Positions 9,352 to 49,531 are shown, counted from the first letter of the stretch. The stretch: 50,341 nt of DNA from Actinomycetota bacterium (GCA_041165905.1 JBEAMP010000052.1:1-50341); one strand, 5' to 3'. The notes: generated from the letters alone by a model not told the origin. Numbers and translations are program-made.

Positions 9352-9747
9352 TTACAAACCGCGAAGACGACGAGCAAGAATTGAGTTTTCGCCCTTGGCC
9401 TCTAAGTCAGAGATTATTACTGCAAGAGATTCGCGAACAATGCGTCCGCGATCTGCTGCTAATCCAAGATCTCCTCGAAGCAAGATTCTTGCTTGATCTA
9501 AATCGAAAAGTTCATCTGGTGATAAGTAGACTGTAATTTTTTCATCATGGCGTTCGCGACCTGATGGAGTGCGAGCGGTAGTTGCGCGGCGACGTTGCGT
9601 CTGACGCACTGCACCACTTTTCTTTGCAGGCTTTGTTGCTTCAATCGGCATCACTGCATCTTCTGTTGCAACCACATCAGGAACTGAAACTAATGGTTTA
9701 GCTCTAAATAATTCATCTGCACCTGGCAGGGAAGCGCGGCGGCTCAT
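9352..9747 (-). CDS. Small basic protein with a C-terminal ribbon-helix-helix-like segment, coupled to the ParA-like gene
   Basis: 131-aa ORF whose start overlaps the upstream stop (ATGA). The N-terminal half is disordered and Arg-rich. The C-terminus (KITVYLSPDELFDLDQARILL....RGRIVRESLAVIISDL) has a beta-alpha-alpha look. Confidence 0.6.
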   Translation of the reverse strand: MSRRASLPGADELFRAKPLVSVPDVVATEDAVMPIEATKPAKKSGAVRQTQRRRATTARTPSGRERHDEKITVYLSPDELFDLDQARILLRGDLGLAADRGRIVRESLAVIISDLEAKGENSILARRLRGL

Positions 9748-10625
9748 TTAGCTCCTCCTCGAGAGATAAGTTCGCGTGCTAAGCGACGATAAGCATTGGC
9801 TGCACCAGAATTCTGCGCATATTGAACGATAGGTTCGCCTTTGACTGAACTCTCAGAGAAGCGAATTGTTTTAGCAATGATAGTTTCAAAGGTATCCTCT
9901 GGAAATTGTTCGACAATTCGCGCTAATACTTCGCGATTATGAACAGCACGTCGATCATACATAGTTGCCAGAATTCCAGAGAGCTTCAAATCAGGATTTA
10001 GCGCTTGACGCACCTTATTTAAATTGTTATTTAATTCAATGAATCCATGAAGTGAGAACCATTCACATTGCAAAGGTACGATAACTTCATCTGAAGCAAC
10101 CAACGCGTTAATTGCCAATTGACCCATAGTTGGTTGGCAATCAATTAAAATCACATCGTAGAAATCTTTTAACGGATTAAGTACTCGTTTTAAGAAAAAT
10201 TGCGAACCGATCTCTGCACCTAACACTGTTTCGGCGGTAGCTAATTCACGGTTGGCAGGTAGAAAATCTAAGCCGGGCATTGAACTTTTAAGAACAATAT
10301 CTTCAGGATTATGCGATGGATCCATAATCGCGTAATAAACAGTCTCTTCTTTAGGTAATTCATTGCCTCGCACCCCAAGGCCAAGTGTCATGCCGCCCTG
10401 CGGATCGAAATCCACTAATAGAACTCGGCGACCTAGTTCAACTAGCGCTGCACCTAAGTTGATAGTAGTTGTGGTTTTACCAACTCCACCTTTTTGATTA
10501 AAGATTGAGATGACCTTTGCGCCACCATGAGTTGTAAGTGGCGTTGGATTAGGAAGAGTCTTTGCTTCTGAATCTGTTAAAGATGCAGTTGTTACAACCT
10601 CTTCAAATGTCGATTTAGCGTTCAA
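9744..10625 (-). CDS. ParA/MinD-family ATPase (orphan chromosomal ParA-like, PldP/Rv1708-type)
   Basis: Deviant Walker A (NQKGGVGKTTTTINLGAAL) and FDPQG. TTG start with an N-terminal extension of about 35 aa; the start is uncertain. Confidence 0.88.
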   Translation of the reverse strand: MNAKSTFEEVVTTASLTDSEAKTLPNPTPLTTHGGAKVISIFNQKGGVGKTTTTINLGAALVELGRRVLLVDFDPQGGMTLGLGVRGNELPKEETVYYAIMDPSHNPEDIVLKSSMPGLDFLPANRELATAETVLGAEIGSQFFLKRVLNPLKDFYDVILIDCQPTMGQLAINALVASDEVIVPLQCEWFSLHGFIELNNNLNKVRQALNPDLKLSGILATMYDRRAVHNREVLARIVEQFPEDTFETIIAKTIRFSESSVKGEPIVQYAQNSGAANAYRRLARELISRGGAK

Positions 10626-10714
10626 GCGTTAAACCTGCCTTTCAAGGTTGAAACCTAGGCGTAAGAGTGCCAATAGGCAAGTTTCTACACGTAATTGCGA
10701 TAGGTTTTGTCGCT

Positions 10715-11602
10715 ATGGAGCTTCTCGAGAATTCTGCTAAAGAGCAGGAAGGTATCGAGAATTCAGGTTTCGCCGTTCATTTAGAGAACTTCGATGGCCC
10801 ATTTGACCTGCTACTTCAATTAATTTCACGTCACAAGATGGATGTGACAGAAGTTGCGCTCTCCATAGTCACAGATGAATTCATCGGCTACATCAGAAAA
10901 CTTGAAGAGAGTGGCAAAGGTTGGCAGCTAGATCAAGCAACCGAATTTTTGGTTATTGCCGCGACCTTGTTAGATCTAAAGGCTGCGAAATTATTACCTC
11001 AAGGTGAAGTTGAGGATGAGGCTGATCTTGCCCTTCTTGAAGCGCGCGATCTGCTCTTTGCGCGCTTACTTCAGTACAGAGCGTTTAAAGAGATTGCGGC
11101 AACTTTTGCAGAACGGATAGCTCTAGCAGAGAAGAGTTTCCCTCGAACCACAGCCTTAGAGGCGCATTTTGCAACTTTGCTTCCAGAAGTTTTAATCGGA
11201 GTTGGCCCCGAGCGTTTTGCGGTTTTAGCTGATCGGGTGCTCTATCCAAAAGCGCCTCCAGTAGTTTCTGTCGAACACATTCATCGCCCTCTTGTTAATG
11301 TTGCCGAACAGACCAAGTTCGTAGCTGCTGCGCTACGTCTTGCAAAATCTCTCTCTTTCCGAGCTCTAATTCACGATGCGGAAGAACCGATGGTTATCGT
11401 CGCTCGCTTTCTTGCTTTGCTAGATCTCTACCGTTCAGGAGCGCTCAGATTTGAGCAATTAGAGGCCTTTACTGACCTCCAGATAAGTTGGGTAGGGCCA
11501 GCTGATGGCGAAATCATCATCTCGGAAGAATTCGATATCCCAGTGGTTTTAGAGAGCGAAAACGGCGAGATTATTGAGAGCAAGGAAAACCCAAATGAAT
11601 GA
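10715..11602 (+). CDS. scpA: Segregation and condensation protein A
   Basis: FDGPFDLLLQLI..HK.D motif. Followed by overlapping scpB. I prefer the ATG at 10715 over the GTG at 10667. Confidence 0.88.
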   Translation: MELLENSAKEQEGIENSGFAVHLENFDGPFDLLLQLISRHKMDVTEVALSIVTDEFIGYIRKLEESGKGWQLDQATEFLVIAATLLDLKAAKLLPQGEVEDEADLALLEARDLLFARLLQYRAFKEIAATFAERIALAEKSFPRTTALEAHFATLLPEVLIGVGPERFAVLADRVLYPKAPPVVSVEHIHRPLVNVAEQTKFVAAALRLAKSLSFRALIHDAEEPMVIVARFLALLDLYRSGALRFEQLEAFTDLQISWVGPADGEIIISEEFDIPVVLESENGEIIESKENPNE

Positions 11603-12140: not shown

Positions 12141-12221
12141 TTCAAGCAGTGACCTTACGATAAAATATGCCCATCCTCTGGAGCTCTCTCCAGAGATTCG
12201 AAAGATGGGAATCTTGCGGTT

Positions 12222-12929
12222 ATGGCTATTCGCTTAAATAAATATATCGCCGATGCTGGTGTAACTAGCCGTCGCGGTGCCGATTCATTGATTGAGGCTG
12301 GCCGCGTAAAGGTAAATGGCAAACGAATTACCGAATTGGGCTATAAAGTTGATGAAAAGTCTAAAGTAGAGGTTGATGGTGAGACAATCACAACCTCTTC
12401 ATCTAAAACTTATTTAGCACTTTATAAGCCGCGAGGTGTTTTATCTACTATGTTCGACCCAGATGGTCGTCCATCTTTAGCTGAGTTGGTGGATTTTCGA
12501 AAAGAACGACTTTTTCATGTCGGCCGCCTAGATAAGGACTCAGAAGGTCTAATTCTTTTAACTAACGATGGGGATGTAACTTTTAGGGCCACCCACCCAA
12601 GCTATGGACTTGAGAAGACCTATTTAGTTCAGTTCGAGGGTGAACTTCCGAGAGATGCTAAATCCATCCTGACAAAGGGGGTCGAATTAGAAGATGGGAT
12701 CGCACGAGTTACAGGATATAAAGAGCTACCAAATAATTGGGTTGAACTTAAAATCCATGAGGGTAGATATCACATTATTCGTCGATTAATGGATGCGATC
12801 GGAGTGAAGGTTCTTCGATTAGTAAGAAGTCAGTTTGGCCCGATCCTATTGGGTGATTTAAAAGAGGGGCGTTGGCGGGACCTAAATGACGTTGAAGTGG
12901 CTAATTTATATAAGGCTTTAGCTCTTTAA
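12222..12929 (+). CDS. rluB: 23S rRNA pseudouridine synthase, RluB/RsuA family
   Basis: S4 domain (RLNKYIADAGVTSRRGADSLI..GRVKVNG) and catalytic HVGRLDKDSEGLILLTNDG. Confidence 0.92.
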   Translation: MAIRLNKYIADAGVTSRRGADSLIEAGRVKVNGKRITELGYKVDEKSKVEVDGETITTSSSKTYLALYKPRGVLSTMFDPDGRPSLAELVDFRKERLFHVGRLDKDSEGLILLTNDGDVTFRATHPSYGLEKTYLVQFEGELPRDAKSILTKGVELEDGIARVTGYKELPNNWVELKIHEGRYHIIRRLMDAIGVKVLRLVRSQFGPILLGDLKEGRWRDLNDVEVANLYKALAL

Positions 12930-13192
12930 CTTTTTGTTTATATATCCCTTTTATCCGAAAATTAATATATCGATAAATCGTTACGAATTAAAATCGAAAA
13001 CATATTTATCGACATTTAGAGGCGTAAAAACATCCACAAATATAAATTTATCGATATTTGTCAGAATCGATTTTACGAAGAATCATAGAGAAGGATTGGA
13101 AGAGAATTCCGATTTGTCGATAAAACAAGAAGTCGGAATAACGTTAATAGTAAATCCAACGAATTGTGGAAAAGGAAAGGTAAACTCTCGAC
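12930..13192. promoter_or_regulatory. AT-rich non-coding region carrying a nested array of TCGA-core repeats and DnaA-box-like 9-mers
   Basis: Largest intergenic gap in the window. Direct repeat ATTTATCGA(C/T)ATTT at 13004-13017 and 13046-13059. Inverted repeats at 12968-12989 / 13105-13122 and at 12990-12997 / 13067-13074. See findings. Confidence 0.6.
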
Positions 13193-13546
13193 ATGAACTT
13201 GAGAGCTATTAGAGGGGCGATTCAAGTAGAGGCTAATACTCCCGAGGAGATCGCATCAGGAGTTAAAGAGCTACTGCCTGCCATTTTGCAGGCTAATAAT
13301 CTAACCGCAGATGATGTTATCTCAGTGATTCTTACCTGCACGCCTGATCTAAATGCTGCCTTTCCTGCTGCCTTTGCCAGAGAGATTGGTTTTGGCGCCG
13401 TGCCACTTTTATGTGCGGTCGAGATGGATGTCCCCGGCGCATTACCGCTGGTTATTCGTGTGATGCTTCATGCGCAGCTTAAATCGGTTGCCAATCATGT
13501 TTATCTTCGAGGGGCCACTTCGCTACGTAAAGATTTAGCCCAATAA
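13193..13546 (+). CDS. aroH: Chorismate mutase, AroH class
   Basis: RAIRGAI N-terminus, TPDLNAAFPA and MDVPGALP..IRVM, closely resembling B. subtilis AroH. Confidence 0.9.
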   Translation: MNLRAIRGAIQVEANTPEEIASGVKELLPAILQANNLTADDVISVILTCTPDLNAAFPAAFAREIGFGAVPLLCAVEMDVPGALPLVIRVMLHAQLKSVANHVYLRGATSLRKDLAQ

Positions 13547-13570: not shown

Positions 13571-14611
13571 ATGAAAATTGTAGTTATTGGAGCCGGTCTA
13601 ATCGGCACATCAATTGCCTTGGGCGCAAAGCGGGCTGGAGCAGAGGTCCAACTTTTTGATGAAGATGGCCGCGCACAGAATTTAGCTAACGACTTAGTCG
13701 AATCAGTTGTAATTGAAGATCCTACTATTGTGGTCATTGCGACGCCGACAAGTGCGCTTTCGGGTGTAGTAAATAGATACAAAAATCTGTATCCAAAGTC
13801 AACGTTTATAGATATAGGTAGCACAAAAACTAAAGTTAAAGTAGAAGTACAAACAGATAAAGCGCTATCTAAACGTTTTTGTCCTACCCATCCAATGGCA
13901 GGAAGAGAGCTTGATGGGGCAGAGGCGGCGCAATCTGATCTCTTTGTAGGAAAGAGTTGGATCATTACTCCACTTCCCGAAACATCTGGAGAATCTATAG
14001 CGTTGGTAAAAGAGCTAATCGAAAAGCTAGGCGCCAGAGTTATAGCTATGAGCCCAGAAGATCATGATTCTGCGGTAGCTTCGGTAAGCCATCTCCCACA
14101 GATAATTTCATCGCTATTAGCTGCCCAATTAGAGAATAAAAGTCCGGAATTCCTTGCTCTTGCAGGTTCTGGGGTTATGGATACCACGCGGATCGCCGGT
14201 TCTAATCCCGATCTTTGGCGGGAGATACTTCGTTTGAATCGTGAGGCAATCGAACCCCTTTTAAAAGATTTCCAAAAAGATTTATCGACATTAATCGACA
14301 ATTACGATGTCGAAAACGTTTTACACCGTGGCCGTAAAGGTCGCCACCTATTGCCAGGAAAGCATAGAAGCGCTTCTCGTAATTACACCTACTTGCCTGT
14401 AGTGCTCGAAGATAAGCCAAATCAGTTGGCTCTGTTATTTGATGAATGTGCAAAAGCTAATGTAAACGTGGAAGATATCACTATTGAACATTCACCAGAG
14501 CAAGAGACAGGTTTAGTTTTGTTAGCTTTAAGCGCACCAAATGCAGAGTTGTTACAGAAACATTTAGCAACTTCAGGTTGGCGCGTGCATCCTCCACGAT
14601 CGGAGAAGTAA
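13571..14611 (+). CDS. tyrA: Prephenate dehydrogenase
   Basis: Rossmann MKIVVIGAGLIGTSIA, HPMAG motif and a C-terminal ACT-like segment. Confidence 0.9.
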   Translation: MKIVVIGAGLIGTSIALGAKRAGAEVQLFDEDGRAQNLANDLVESVVIEDPTIVVIATPTSALSGVVNRYKNLYPKSTFIDIGSTKTKVKVEVQTDKALSKRFCPTHPMAGRELDGAEAAQSDLFVGKSWIITPLPETSGESIALVKELIEKLGARVIAMSPEDHDSAVASVSHLPQIISSLLAAQLENKSPEFLALAGSGVMDTTRIAGSNPDLWREILRLNREAIEPLLKDFQKDLSTLIDNYDVENVLHRGRKGRHLLPGKHRSASRNYTYLPVVLEDKPNQLALLFDECAKANVNVEDITIEHSPEQETGLVLLALSAPNAELLQKHLATSGWRVHPPRSEK

Positions 14612-22845: not shown

Positions 22846-23586
22846 TTACTTAACATAATGTAACTTATCGGCGGTTGGGTTAATTCGGCGCCTAAGCCCA
22901 AGCCAAGTTACCTTAAAGATCGCCTCAAGCACGATTCGCCTGCTCATTTTCGAGCTTCCCTGGGCCCGCTCTATAAAAGTTATTGGCACTTCAATCACTT
23001 TGTATGCCGGCAAGTGATTTAGCGCAAATGCCATTTCAATTTGGTAGCAATAGCCATTTGAAGTTATCTGATCAAAATCTAATTCTTCTAGTGCAACTCT
23101 TGGATAGATACGAAATCCACCTGTTAAATCATTTATATCCATTTTGAGGGCCCATTTGGCATATCTAGTACCTGCTTTAGAAAGCCATTTACGACTTTTT
23201 GGCCAATTAACGATTTGGCCACCTGGGATCCATCTGGAACCAAGAATTATCGCTTTTGGATTCAGATTTGCTATTTCCAGCATTTTTTCCAAATCTTCGG
23301 CCCTATGTGATCCATCTGCATCCATCGAAATTAAATGTGTAAATTCTGAATTCTCTAAAATCTTTTTGATTCCAGCTTTATATGCATTTCCTAGACCATC
23401 TTTTTCGGCGCGTTTCAAAATGTCGACATTTTTATAGTTGAAAGATTTAACTAAATCCGCAGTTTTATCTGGTGAATTGTCGTCTATAACTAATATCTTT
23501 AAATTTTCAACCGTTGTTAGATTTTTTAATATGCTTCCTATGTTTTTTGTTTCATTGTAAGTTGGCATTAGAACTATAGGCTTCAT
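22846..23586 (-). CDS. ppm1: Family 2 glycosyltransferase, polyprenol-phosphate mannose synthase-like (Ppm1 catalytic domain)
   Basis: PTYNE..NI, VIDDNSPD.T and DADGSH motifs. Position corresponds to Rv2051c. Confidence 0.82.
   Translation of the reverse strand: MKPIVLMPTYNETKNIGSILKNLTTVENLKILVIDDNSPDKTADLVKSFNYKNVDILKRAEKDGLGNAYKAGIKKILENSEFTHLISMDADGSHRAEDLEKMLEIANLNPKAIILGSRWIPGGQIVNWPKSRKWLSKAGTRYAKWALKMDINDLTGGFRIYPRVALEELDFDQITSNGYCYQIEMAFALNHLPAYKVIEVPITFIERAQGSSKMSRRIVLEAIFKVTWLGLRRRINPTADKLHYVK
22848..22875 (-). other. dif: dif-like XerC/XerD recombination site (11-6-11)
   Basis: The minus strand reads ACCGCCGATAA-GTTACA-TTATGTTAAGT. E. coli dif is GGTGCGCATAA-TGTATA-TTATGTTAAAT. 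The XerD arm matches 10/11 and the inner ATAA/TTAT palindrome is kept. It lies at the plus-to-minus gene-orientation switch. Confidence 0.65.
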
Positions 23587-47491: not shown

Positions 47492-47533
47492 AGGTTGGCA
47501 AGATTACCTCAAGCGCTACCCTAAAATTGCTCT

Positions 47534-47782
47534 ATGCACTCAAATTTCACTGGATTACTTTTGGTAACCGGTGAAAGCGCTCCAAATATTGAGAGCGAAA
47601 TCTTGGAAACACTCTCCCCTTTTGTGATAACAATTCTAGATAAACAGAGTATGGATATCCGTGGGCGATATTTCTTAGCCATCCATTTCTCCCTAGATAA
47701 AGCACATACAAAAGCGATCGAAAAGGATTTACTAAACACCGCTGCGAAACTTGGTGTTGATTTAGTTGTTGATTACCAATGA
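47534..47782 (+). CDS. Stand-alone ACT-like regulatory domain protein, equivalent to the N-terminal domain of long SerB enzymes
   Basis: 82-aa ORF with a beta-alpha-beta-beta-alpha-beta-like pattern. Its stop overlaps the serB ATG (ATGA at 47779-47782). Confidence 0.6.
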   Translation: MHSNFTGLLLVTGESAPNIESEILETLSPFVITILDKQSMDIRGRYFLAIHFSLDKAHTKAIEKDLLNTAAKLGVDLVVDYQ

Positions 47783-49243: not shown

Positions 49244-49506
49244 TAAAGTTCCTTATAGATCTCTTCAAGAGAAATGCCACGCGCCTTTGCTAGCACTTGT
49301 AAGTAATAAAGTAGTTGAGAAATTTCTAGCGCTAGCTGTTCGTTAGATTGATATTCGGCAGCAATCCAAACTTCGCCGGCTTCTTCCATAATCTTCTTGC
49401 CAATGGAGTGAATACCAGAATTGATAAGTGAAACCGTTCCAGAATCAACTTGGCCAGATTCTATTTTTTGACCAATTTCTACCCATAACTCATCGAACGA
49501 TTTCAT
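49243..49506 (-). CDS. hisE: Phosphoribosyl-ATP pyrophosphatase
   Basis: 87 aa. F..L...I and K..EE..E...A motifs. 1-nt stop/start overlap with hisG. Confidence 0.9.
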   Translation of the reverse strand: MKSFDELWVEIGQKIESGQVDSGTVSLINSGIHSIGKKIMEEAGEVWIAAEYQSNEQLALEISQLLYYLQVLAKARGISLEEIYKEL

Positions 49507-49531
49507 AACGTAATTTTACTTTACAAAGTAG

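Follow-up and report, generated by a model that had tools for sequence, protein, structure and literature searches.

Introduction

Short palindromic sites with a central CpG are a feature of the LacI (O1/O2/O3), GalR (OE/OI) and DeoR systems, where several copies occur over about 200 bp upstream of the promoter. A copy inside a gene, such as lac O2 in lacZ or gal OI in galE, and a weak half site over the start point can accompany them. For TyrR in Escherichia coli, multiple palindromic boxes lie upstream of aroF–tyrA, a chorismate mutase/prephenate dehydrogenase operon, and are occupied cooperatively by an oligomerising regulator. Lrp/AsnC proteins use A/T-rich palindromes of 12–15 bp, which are rigidly spaced about three helical turns apart upstream of amino-acid genes. 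The subject of this work is the spacer between rluB and aroH (positions 12930–13192) in a DNA stretch of 50,341 nucleotides (GCA_041165905.1, JBEAMP010000052.1), which is called the window below. This spacer resembled the systems above in carrying five to six copies of a short palindromic box upstream of an aroH–tyrA operon, with 33 and 31 bp between three of the sites, a further copy in tyrA and a half site over the predicted start point. With a probability of roughly 0.55, it is a phased multi-operator or upstream-regulatory array for a sequence-specific DNA-binding protein that would control aroH–tyrA(–cmk/der). The array would then be a known kind of feature, namely a multi-operator control region, with a new motif.

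Conserved box array in the rluB–aroH spacer

The relatives of the RluB protein encoded beside the gap came from metagenome-assembled genomes named Candidatus Nanopelagicaceae or Nanopelagicales (acI freshwater Actinobacteria), and the window is part of a Nanopelagicaceae (acI) genome. The rluB–aroH region was compared with that of 13 further Nanopelagicaceae species (RluB identity 71–97%) and of one more distant genus (L331, GC 0.515). The spacer length was kept at 263–291 bp in 14 related species, and the bulk of its sequence was free to vary. The mean pairwise column identity in a 12-species alignment was 0.71–0.78 in the boxes, whereas it was 0.37–0.46 between them. The islands had identities of 0.78 (13003–13016), 0.73 (13045–13058) and 0.71 (13111–13126), with 0.59 for the box region at 12966–12979. 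In the 3' part of the spacer, the values were 0.89 for the 11-mer TAAATCCAACG and 0.84 for the last 23 nt up to and over the ATG. A weight matrix built from 40 aligned boxes read rwTTTRTCGAYAww, with about 15 bits. The box itself, TTTRTCGAYA(ww), was a near-palindrome of 10–12 bp with a CpG at its centre. The features of the spacer and its 3' border are as follows, with box centres given relative to the aroH ATG.

12930–13192, plus strand: rluB–aroH spacer, 263 bp, GC 0.30 against about 0.42 for the window
12939–12952, plus strand: box a, offset +13 past rluB, centre about -246; degenerate in the window (TATATATCCCTTTT), with a scoring copy in 7 related species
12966–12979, minus strand: box b, GATTTATCGATATA, 19.4 bits on the minus and 14.9 bits on the plus strand, TCGA centre about -221.5
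13003–13016, plus strand: box d, TATTTATCGACATT, 19.1 bits, offset +77 in 13/13 close relatives, centre about -182.5
13045–13058, plus strand: box e, AATTTATCGATATT, 18.7 bits, offset +119, 42 bp past box d, centre about -140.5
13064–13074, plus strand: semi-conserved element (G/A)TCCGAWWT / ATCGATTT, read from the alignment, 10–12 nt 3' of box e
13111–13126, both strands: box f, GATTTGTCGATAAAAC, a true palindrome with 18.1 bits on each strand, offset +186/+188 in most species, centre about -74.5
13151–13161, plus strand: 11-mer TAAATCCAACG, the most conserved island of the spacer, at -42 to -32
13181–13186, plus strand: predicted -10 element TAAACT, the sole TANNNT conserved in all species, exactly 6 nt 5' of the ATG
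13187–13195, plus strand: CTCGAC-ATG, predicted transcription start at the start codon, with half box TCGAYA

Matches to the weight matrix occurred at the same offsets past rluB in the 13 relatives, that is, at +13, +32 (minus strand) or +46 (plus strand), +77, +119 and +186/188. The distant genus retained strong boxes at +45 and +117. Box e was kept in 11 of the 13 relatives at a 12-bit cut-off. Other species had, in place of box b, a box on the minus strand at +32 or on the plus strand at +46; six of the 13 relatives had the minus-strand site only, and five others had a plus-strand site 16 bp away instead. Within the 50 kb, matches above 14 bits were confined to the gap and one site in tyrA. 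The spacing was free of indels across about 190 bp of otherwise unconstrained sequence. Such rigid spacing is the constraint expected from a nucleoprotein complex of fixed geometry, and it therefore points to DNA–protein contact. Furthermore, a protein that binds duplex DNA would readily tolerate the strand switch at the box b site, and an RNA motif would hardly do so, which argues for action at the DNA level. Repeated palindromic sites were thus kept at fixed positions in the manner of a footprint. The gap is a real and strongly conserved cis element. The conservation of the boxes is directly visible in the alignment, and from it we infer that a protein binds them.

At position 12947, the window has C, and the near-identical L001 and most contigs of the RNA runs described below have G. 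In L001 and in this C12947G variant, box a reads TATCGC. The G restores the TATCG core at +13, so that the first box of the window strain appears weakened. One locus with rluB and without aroH (L019) was followed by unrelated GC-rich DNA; it was probably a chimeric contig and was uninformative. The boxes were also considered as sigma-70 -35 or -10 elements and rejected, as no partner hexamer lay at a workable distance and the other promoters of the window had no boxes. A literature search on the box strings returned primers and the eukaryotic DRE only.

Probable leaderless promoter of aroH

The conserved island GGTAAACT (13179–13186) contained the predicted -10 element and was followed by N6-ATG. 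The arrangement TANNNT-N6-ATG was found in 15/15 loci, including divergent ones with TAAAAT (L020), TAGCCT (L025) and TACCCT (L331). A GAAAGG sequence lay 12 nt from the aroH ATG, and L331 was without any purine run. This distance is too great for a ribosome-binding site, which a leaderless start would explain. Leaderless starts are common in Actinobacteria, with transcription beginning at the A of the start codon. The aroH gene had the layout that defines this class, with a -10 TANNNT 6–7 nt from the start codon and no Shine–Dalgarno sequence 5–10 nt upstream. Elsewhere, TANNNT-N5–7-start was present in 11 of the 53 window genes, several of them with GGTAnnnT. Hence, aroH is probably read from a leaderless promoter, and its transcript would start at the A of the ATG, at 13193. 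According to this reading, the boxes at about -74, -140, -182 and -221 lie in untranscribed DNA. The 11-mer TAAATCCAACG occupies the place expected of a -35 element or of an activator site close to the promoter. Moreover, the start of aroH reads TCGAYATG, with the same C/T variation as in the boxes.

Sites outside the spacer

Two box-related sites outside the gap fell within constrained coding sequence.

14264–14296, plus strand: intragenic island of tyrA, AAAGATTTCCAAAAAGATTTATCGACATTAATC, with box GATTTATCGACATT at 14279–14292, 20.3 bits, the best score in the window
10606–10619, minus strand: box-like GCTAAATCGACATT, 11.6 bits, in codons 3–7 of the ParA-like gene (AAATCGACATTT at codons 4–7)

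The tyrA box was present in 12 of the 13 close relatives and missing from the distant genus L331. The synonymous sites of the codons GAT TTA TCG ACA and of the five preceding codons were invariant in 10 species; neighbouring Leu codons used five different triplets. The box was the strongest island of synonymous constraint in the gene (0.89 versus a gene mean of 0.47), so that it has the character of an auxiliary operator, a selected site inside a coding region. Its distance from the predicted aroH start was about 1.09 kb, and cmk/der followed 320 bp downstream of it. The box could serve looping as an auxiliary operator, or it could belong to an internal control region of cmk/der. An extra strong minus-strand box, TCTTTATCGAYATT (17 bits), was observed in the cmk part of cmk/der in L017 (+2177 past rluB) and L020 (+2258); L017 had no tyrA box. 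The box-like site in the ParA-like gene was within a stretch whose DNA was invariant in 11 species, and the distant genus had this site as well. Its assignment to the box system is uncertain.

Two pattern scans covered other sequence collections. A two-box pattern gave at least 119 stretches in viral contigs, and the matches listed were selection-biased, with an iteron array of a phage and a family of freshwater phages among them. A three-box pattern gave at least 120 in metagenome contigs, and the matches listed were tandem repeats that ranged over all GC contents and had no relation to acI. One phage contig (L210, IMG/VR 3300028048_000134) had about 25 tandem copies of ATATCGATAA at intervals of 13–20 bp in a gene-free stretch (2050–2460), which is probably an iteron or packaging array and apparently unrelated to acI. 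In an IMG/VR viral family (L095, L099, L125, L170, L100 and L139; GC 0.43–0.48), a 622-aa terminase-like open reading frame (ORF) was preceded at about 300 bp by two to three high-scoring boxes (TTTGTCGATAAAT, TATGTCGATAAATCGATAAT); these boxes were found by motif search and may be due to chance.

Gap composition and the earlier note

The strings and coordinates given for the gap in the earlier note all agreed exactly with the sequence. The six TCGA-core sites that it named are listed below.

12968–12980: TATCGATAAATCG
12990–13000: AAAATCGAAAA
13004–13017: ATTTATCGACATTT
13046–13059: ATTTATCGATATTT
13064–13074: GAATCGATTTT
13110–13122: CGATTTGTCGATA

Four DnaA-like 9-mers were likewise present, as strings, where they had been placed. 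A repeat search recovered the direct repeat with its 42-bp spacing (12997–13017/13039–13059, 81%), the outer inverted repeat (12968–12980/13110–13122, 92%) and the inner inverted repeat (12989–12997/13067–13075, 100%). The gap held seven TCGA, and the six inside 155 bp made it the densest stretch of this length in the 50 kb, six being reached at only 8 positions of the window. Counting both strands, the window had five copies of TTTATCGAYA, and the gap accounted for four. At up to one mismatch, there were 18 matches in the window versus 9.0 ± 2.7 in shuffles. The other intergenic gaps of the window had 0–1 TCGA each and no boxes. The gap had also been called the only large one, which calls for a caveat: two other stretches of about 287 bp (47492–47778 and 49244–49531) appeared near the window end in a rough gene list. 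These had ordinary GC and no boxes, and may contain small ORFs.

The note had named translation and conservation of a 92-aa ORF (12934–13212) as a possible refutation. The conservation test was negative: the longest open frames of the relatives had 49–81 codons with shifting frames and strands, and the ORF itself gave no family matches. The coding reading of the gap was rejected. The alignment of related spacers, which had been proposed as a check, gave conserved islands and no real covariation.

Proposed mechanism and points against it

One sequence-specific protein, probably a dimer reading the palindrome, would bind all boxes. Several sites were roughly whole helical turns apart (33, 31 and 42 bp), which suggests cooperative assembly on the same face of the DNA. 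Such assembly would give a higher-order complex that sets the promoter activity. The complex may loop to the auxiliary site 1.1 kb downstream in tyrA and to the half site over the start point. Tyrosine or prephenate would be the obvious guess for the sensed signal. The earlier note offered five readings without choosing one. Among them was an operator array for the aroH operon, and this was the one favoured by the comparative evidence, in which the footprints keep rigid positions and a leaderless promoter, itself conserved, lies downstream of them.

Several observations weighed against this mechanism. There was no candidate binding protein in the window and no regulator gene adjoining the operon; the regulators recognised in the annotated part of the window were two MerR-family proteins and PafBC only. 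The PafBC/RecA-NDp motif fitted in its first six letters (TTGTCR), and the remainder and the 8-nt distance to TANNNT did not fit. The spacings of 42 and 67 bp did not form a simple regular lattice, and the directional flanks (TTT to the left; A followed by W W to the right) would suit a monomeric reader equally well. Judging from the box-like sequence with which the ParA-like gene begins, the sites may not be specific to aroH, and both pattern scans yielded unrelated repeats among the matches listed. Furthermore, contigs reached upstream of aroH into the array (12957–13128) in most metatranscriptome runs, indicating that part of the array is also in RNA, through read-through or an upstream promoter, or that DNA was present in the libraries. 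The transcription start of aroH is a prediction from sequence.

Other known proteins were compared with the boxes. The motif of the MerR-family protein FtsR/Rv1828, a 25-bp inverted repeat AACCCTAAAGTAAAGGTTGAGGGTA (PMC6683498), bears no likeness to TTTRTCGAYA. The consensus sequences of LexA, TyrR, IHF and parS/NBS/matS showed no fit beyond the central CG. With regard to Xer half sites, CGATAA alone was common to the boxes and the XerC arm of the local dif-like site.

RNA evidence and alternative explanations

The RNA data were assembled contigs of riverine metatranscriptomes from 14 runs. Contigs joined to aroH began at 12957–13216, and one run crossed the entire gap. The contig ends were scattered and followed strain variants; they were not transcript ends. 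In the runs whose assembly graph was interrupted close to the 3' border of the spacer, to which the comparison was limited, the depth in the spacer was two- to threefold lower than in aroH (X3, 7.9/23.9; X8, 4.9/10; X11, about 3.4/10.1; X12, 5.6/12.6). Run X7 had no contig over 13017–13215. This pattern agrees with a main start at the ATG or close to it, plus weaker transcription through the spacer, and is not proof of it. A search of the gap against Rfam gave no match at the gathering score, the best E-values (0.26–9) belonging to unrelated miRNA and sRNA models. The RNAalifold consensus of 13 species had an energy of -1.59 kcal/mol with a covariation term of -0.02, and its sole long helix was the trivial pairing of boxes e and f. 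The z-score of the single-sequence minimum free energy was -1.56, no better than shuffles.

The RNA-derived contigs over much of the spacer in most runs could be taken as a long 5' leader, in which an RNA-binding protein recognises the UUUAUCGAYA motifs, or the motifs pair mutually, to control aroH. The majority of boxes are sense-oriented, and both aroH and the ParA-like gene have box-like sequences at their start codons or close to them, as such a leader would allow. This is nevertheless very unlikely, considering that Rfam gave no family, that neither conserved structure nor real covariation was seen, and that the R and Y positions within a box varied independently in the 40 aligned boxes. 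Moreover, one strong site was antisense in 6/13 relatives, the conserved TANNNT-N6-ATG puts the main start at the ATG, downstream of every box, and the spacer depth was below the aroH depth where the contig graph permitted comparison. The long structured RNA suggested in the earlier note fell with this evidence. Lineage-specific DnaA boxes, titrating DnaA or letting it regulate the operon, would account for an asymmetric motif in both orientations within an array, and TTRTCGACA is one position away from TTATCCACA / TTGTCCACA. However, position 6 was G in about 94% of the 40 aligned boxes, where TTWTNCACA needs C, and position 8 was C in 44% and T in 54%. The best canonical 9-mers, ACATCCACA (13030) and TTTTCCACA (13165, minus strand), were in columns of 0.37–0.40 identity and absent from other species, and the box was not enriched elsewhere in the 50 kb. 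The DnaA-box cluster raised earlier is hence scarcely probable, as the canonical-like 9-mers are unconserved and the conserved boxes have G instead of C. It is even more improbable that the methylation state of TCGA or ATCGAT, alone or in competition with a binding protein, acts as an epigenetic switch of expression. The TCGA core was invariant and three full ATCGAT palindromes were among the sites, but the conserved 10–12 bp, with TTT on the left and A on the right, exceed the need of a TCGA or ATCGAT methyltransferase. TCGA was not avoided in the window (242 observed versus about 187 expected from base composition), and no methyltransferase was seen in the annotated part of it.

The boxes may instead be the target of a 131-aa protein and serve as a terminus-proximal anchor for a ParA system rather than as an operator of aroH. 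A ParA-like ATPase of the PldP type and this protein are encoded on the minus strand at 9352–10625, 2.3 kb from the array, with the 131-aa gene at 9352–9747. The same pair was observed in L332 (7159–8477) and L333 (7096–8414), and the small gene was always behind the ParA-like gene. Relatives of the 131-aa protein formed 603 representative clusters. It has a ParG-like architecture, with the invariant basic N-terminal peptide MSRRASLPGADELFR (MSRRxSLPGAxELFR), a variable linker and a conserved C-terminal domain (EKITVYLSPDELFDLDQAR..., HDEKITVY...DRGRIVRE), a stretch of which resembles a ribbon-helix-helix (RHH) strand and helix. MetJ reads 8-bp palindromes with a central CG, and the KITV strand was likened to that of MetJ, in an alignment that was not significant. 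The 131-aa protein thus looks like a ParG-type RHH adaptor, yet the fold had no support in any test run: the window protein had no Pfam hit, there was no PDB match, hhalign gave probabilities under 1%, and the AF2 monomer was poor. RHH_3 was found in only 2 of 55 relatives, at an E-value of 0.06. Also in favour of the anchor are the box-like AAATCGACATTT, which falls where the ParA-like gene is invariant at its 5' end and which the distant genus shares, and the distance of about 9.7 kb between the array and the dif-like site. No partner is known for PldP of C. glutamicum, a ParA-like protein of this locus type (bioRxiv 10.1101/2025.07.02.662783). The 131-aa protein could be the partner of this "orphan" PldP. 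Against a centromere-like site, the box positions were fixed relative to the aroH promoter, and the spacer sites were 31–67 bp apart behind scpA, scpB and rluB, whereas type Ib repeats are contiguous and directly upstream of parA. In Propionibacteriales, the pair was in an operon with scpA–scpB–rluB, without aroH and without a box array upstream of the ParA-like gene. The invariant intergenic element between parA and scpA had a different repeat (AGGTTTnAAC). A centromere-like role is possible but weak, since it draws on proximity and one weak site, and it is judged unlikely. Slightly more doubtful is the wider proposal that the spacer array, the tyrA site and the site in the ParA-like gene form one terminus-proximal nucleoprotein anchor of the PldP-type system and its small partner. 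If true, an anchor beside xerD, scpAB and dif would link one defined locus to the handling of chromosome ends or the placement of the division site, and the control of aroH would be a by-product.

Gene order and neighbouring elements

The gene order was tlyA–nadK–recN–pyrG–ald–xerD, then the ParA-like ATPase and the 131-aa protein on the minus strand, followed by scpA–scpB–rluB, the gap, aroH–tyrA–cmk/der–clsA–gcvH–garA and two MerR genes. This block is conserved across actinobacteria, and metagenome assemblies contained the exact AroH protein in over 300 blocks. A dif-like Xer site was observed at 22848–22875 (reverse complement ACCGCCGATAAGTTACATTATGTTAAGT), with the XerD arm TTATGTTAAGT matching E. 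coli dif at 10/11 positions. It was exactly on a convergent gene junction (22843/22846) and overlapped the final codons of a minus-strand glycosyltransferase gene. The dif-like site coincided with the peak of cumulative GC skew and the flip in gene orientation, indicating that the replication terminus is inside the window. The description of the array as terminus-proximal was thus borne out.

Further conserved or structured elements were observed in the neighbourhood. The final codons of rluB (12885–12926, GTTGAAGTGGCTAATTTATATAAGGCTTTA) had strongly reduced synonymous variation (0.88 versus a mean of 0.49), which may reflect an overlapping signal belonging to the control region. Just 5' of rluB, the scpB–rluB gap held a nested hairpin, CCCATC-CTCTGGAG-CTCT-CTCCAGAG-ATTCGAAA-GATGGG (12170–12209). 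Between the ParA-like gene and scpA, the element TTAAACCTGCCTTTCAAGGTTGAAACCTAGG (10626–10660) was invariant in 11 species; it contained AACCT/AGGTT inverted repeats and the direct repeat AGGTTTnAAC, and loosely resembled the FtsR motif (AACCCT...AGGTTGAGGGT). The scpA gene had a conserved TAGGTT 8 nt 5' of its ATG and a conserved GGCAAGTT farther upstream, and this region (10690–10717) is probably another leaderless or near-leaderless promoter. Immediately 3' of the 5S rRNA gene, a strong hairpin with a T-run, AAAAAGGGGATATC-TTCACT-GATATCCCCTTTTTT (437–470), is likely the terminator of the rRNA operon.

Comparison with known systems

The acI bacteria (Nanopelagicaceae) are among the most abundant freshwater bacteria, and they have streamlined genomes with very few regulators and almost no intergenic DNA. 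To our knowledge, almost nothing is known about regulation in this lineage. A 263-bp spacer of fixed length with five to six rigid sites, together with a constrained site in tyrA, would mean that scarce sequence is spent on the elaborate control of one operon. The defined motif and fragment can be used for fishing out the regulator. If the site belongs to the ParA-like system, the "orphan" ATPase would gain a partner and a DNA address.

Type Ib plasmid centromeres, such as parH of TP228 and the omega sites of pSM19035, are similar in that short boxes recur in both orientations close to a ParA gene, and these systems likewise have a small protein with a basic N-terminal tail encoded after the ParA gene. 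They differ in that the sites described here were neither contiguous nor upstream of parA, and an RHH fold is here suggested by a sequence pattern. Clusters of DnaA boxes (datA and the DBCs of B. subtilis) are also arrays of 9–10-mers in both orientations, from whose consensus the box here was one letter off. The letter in question is the defining C of position 6, which is G here; position 8 was C or T, and canonical boxes were not conserved.

The regulators of metabolic genes named at the outset gave closer likenesses. TyrR is a proteobacterial protein whose box is TGTAAA-N6-TTTACA, whereas the present positions reach much farther upstream; the proposed logic of cooperative occupancy is alike. 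Lrp-type sites have an A/T centre instead of CG. The spacings of 33 and 31 bp between three sites would agree with them, but those of 42 and 67 bp are unfit for an octamer wrap, and no Lrp-type gene was nearby. The LacI family usually has TGnAAnC half sites in place of TTTRTC, and no gene of the LacI or DeoR family was seen among the annotated window genes. LacI, GalR and DeoR act with two or three sites compared with five to six here, and the present target is an amino-acid biosynthesis operon, at which binding and looping are predicted. Hence, the likeness to LacI/GalR/DeoR and to Lrp/AsnC would indicate a possible way of working of the rluB–aroH array rather than membership in these families.

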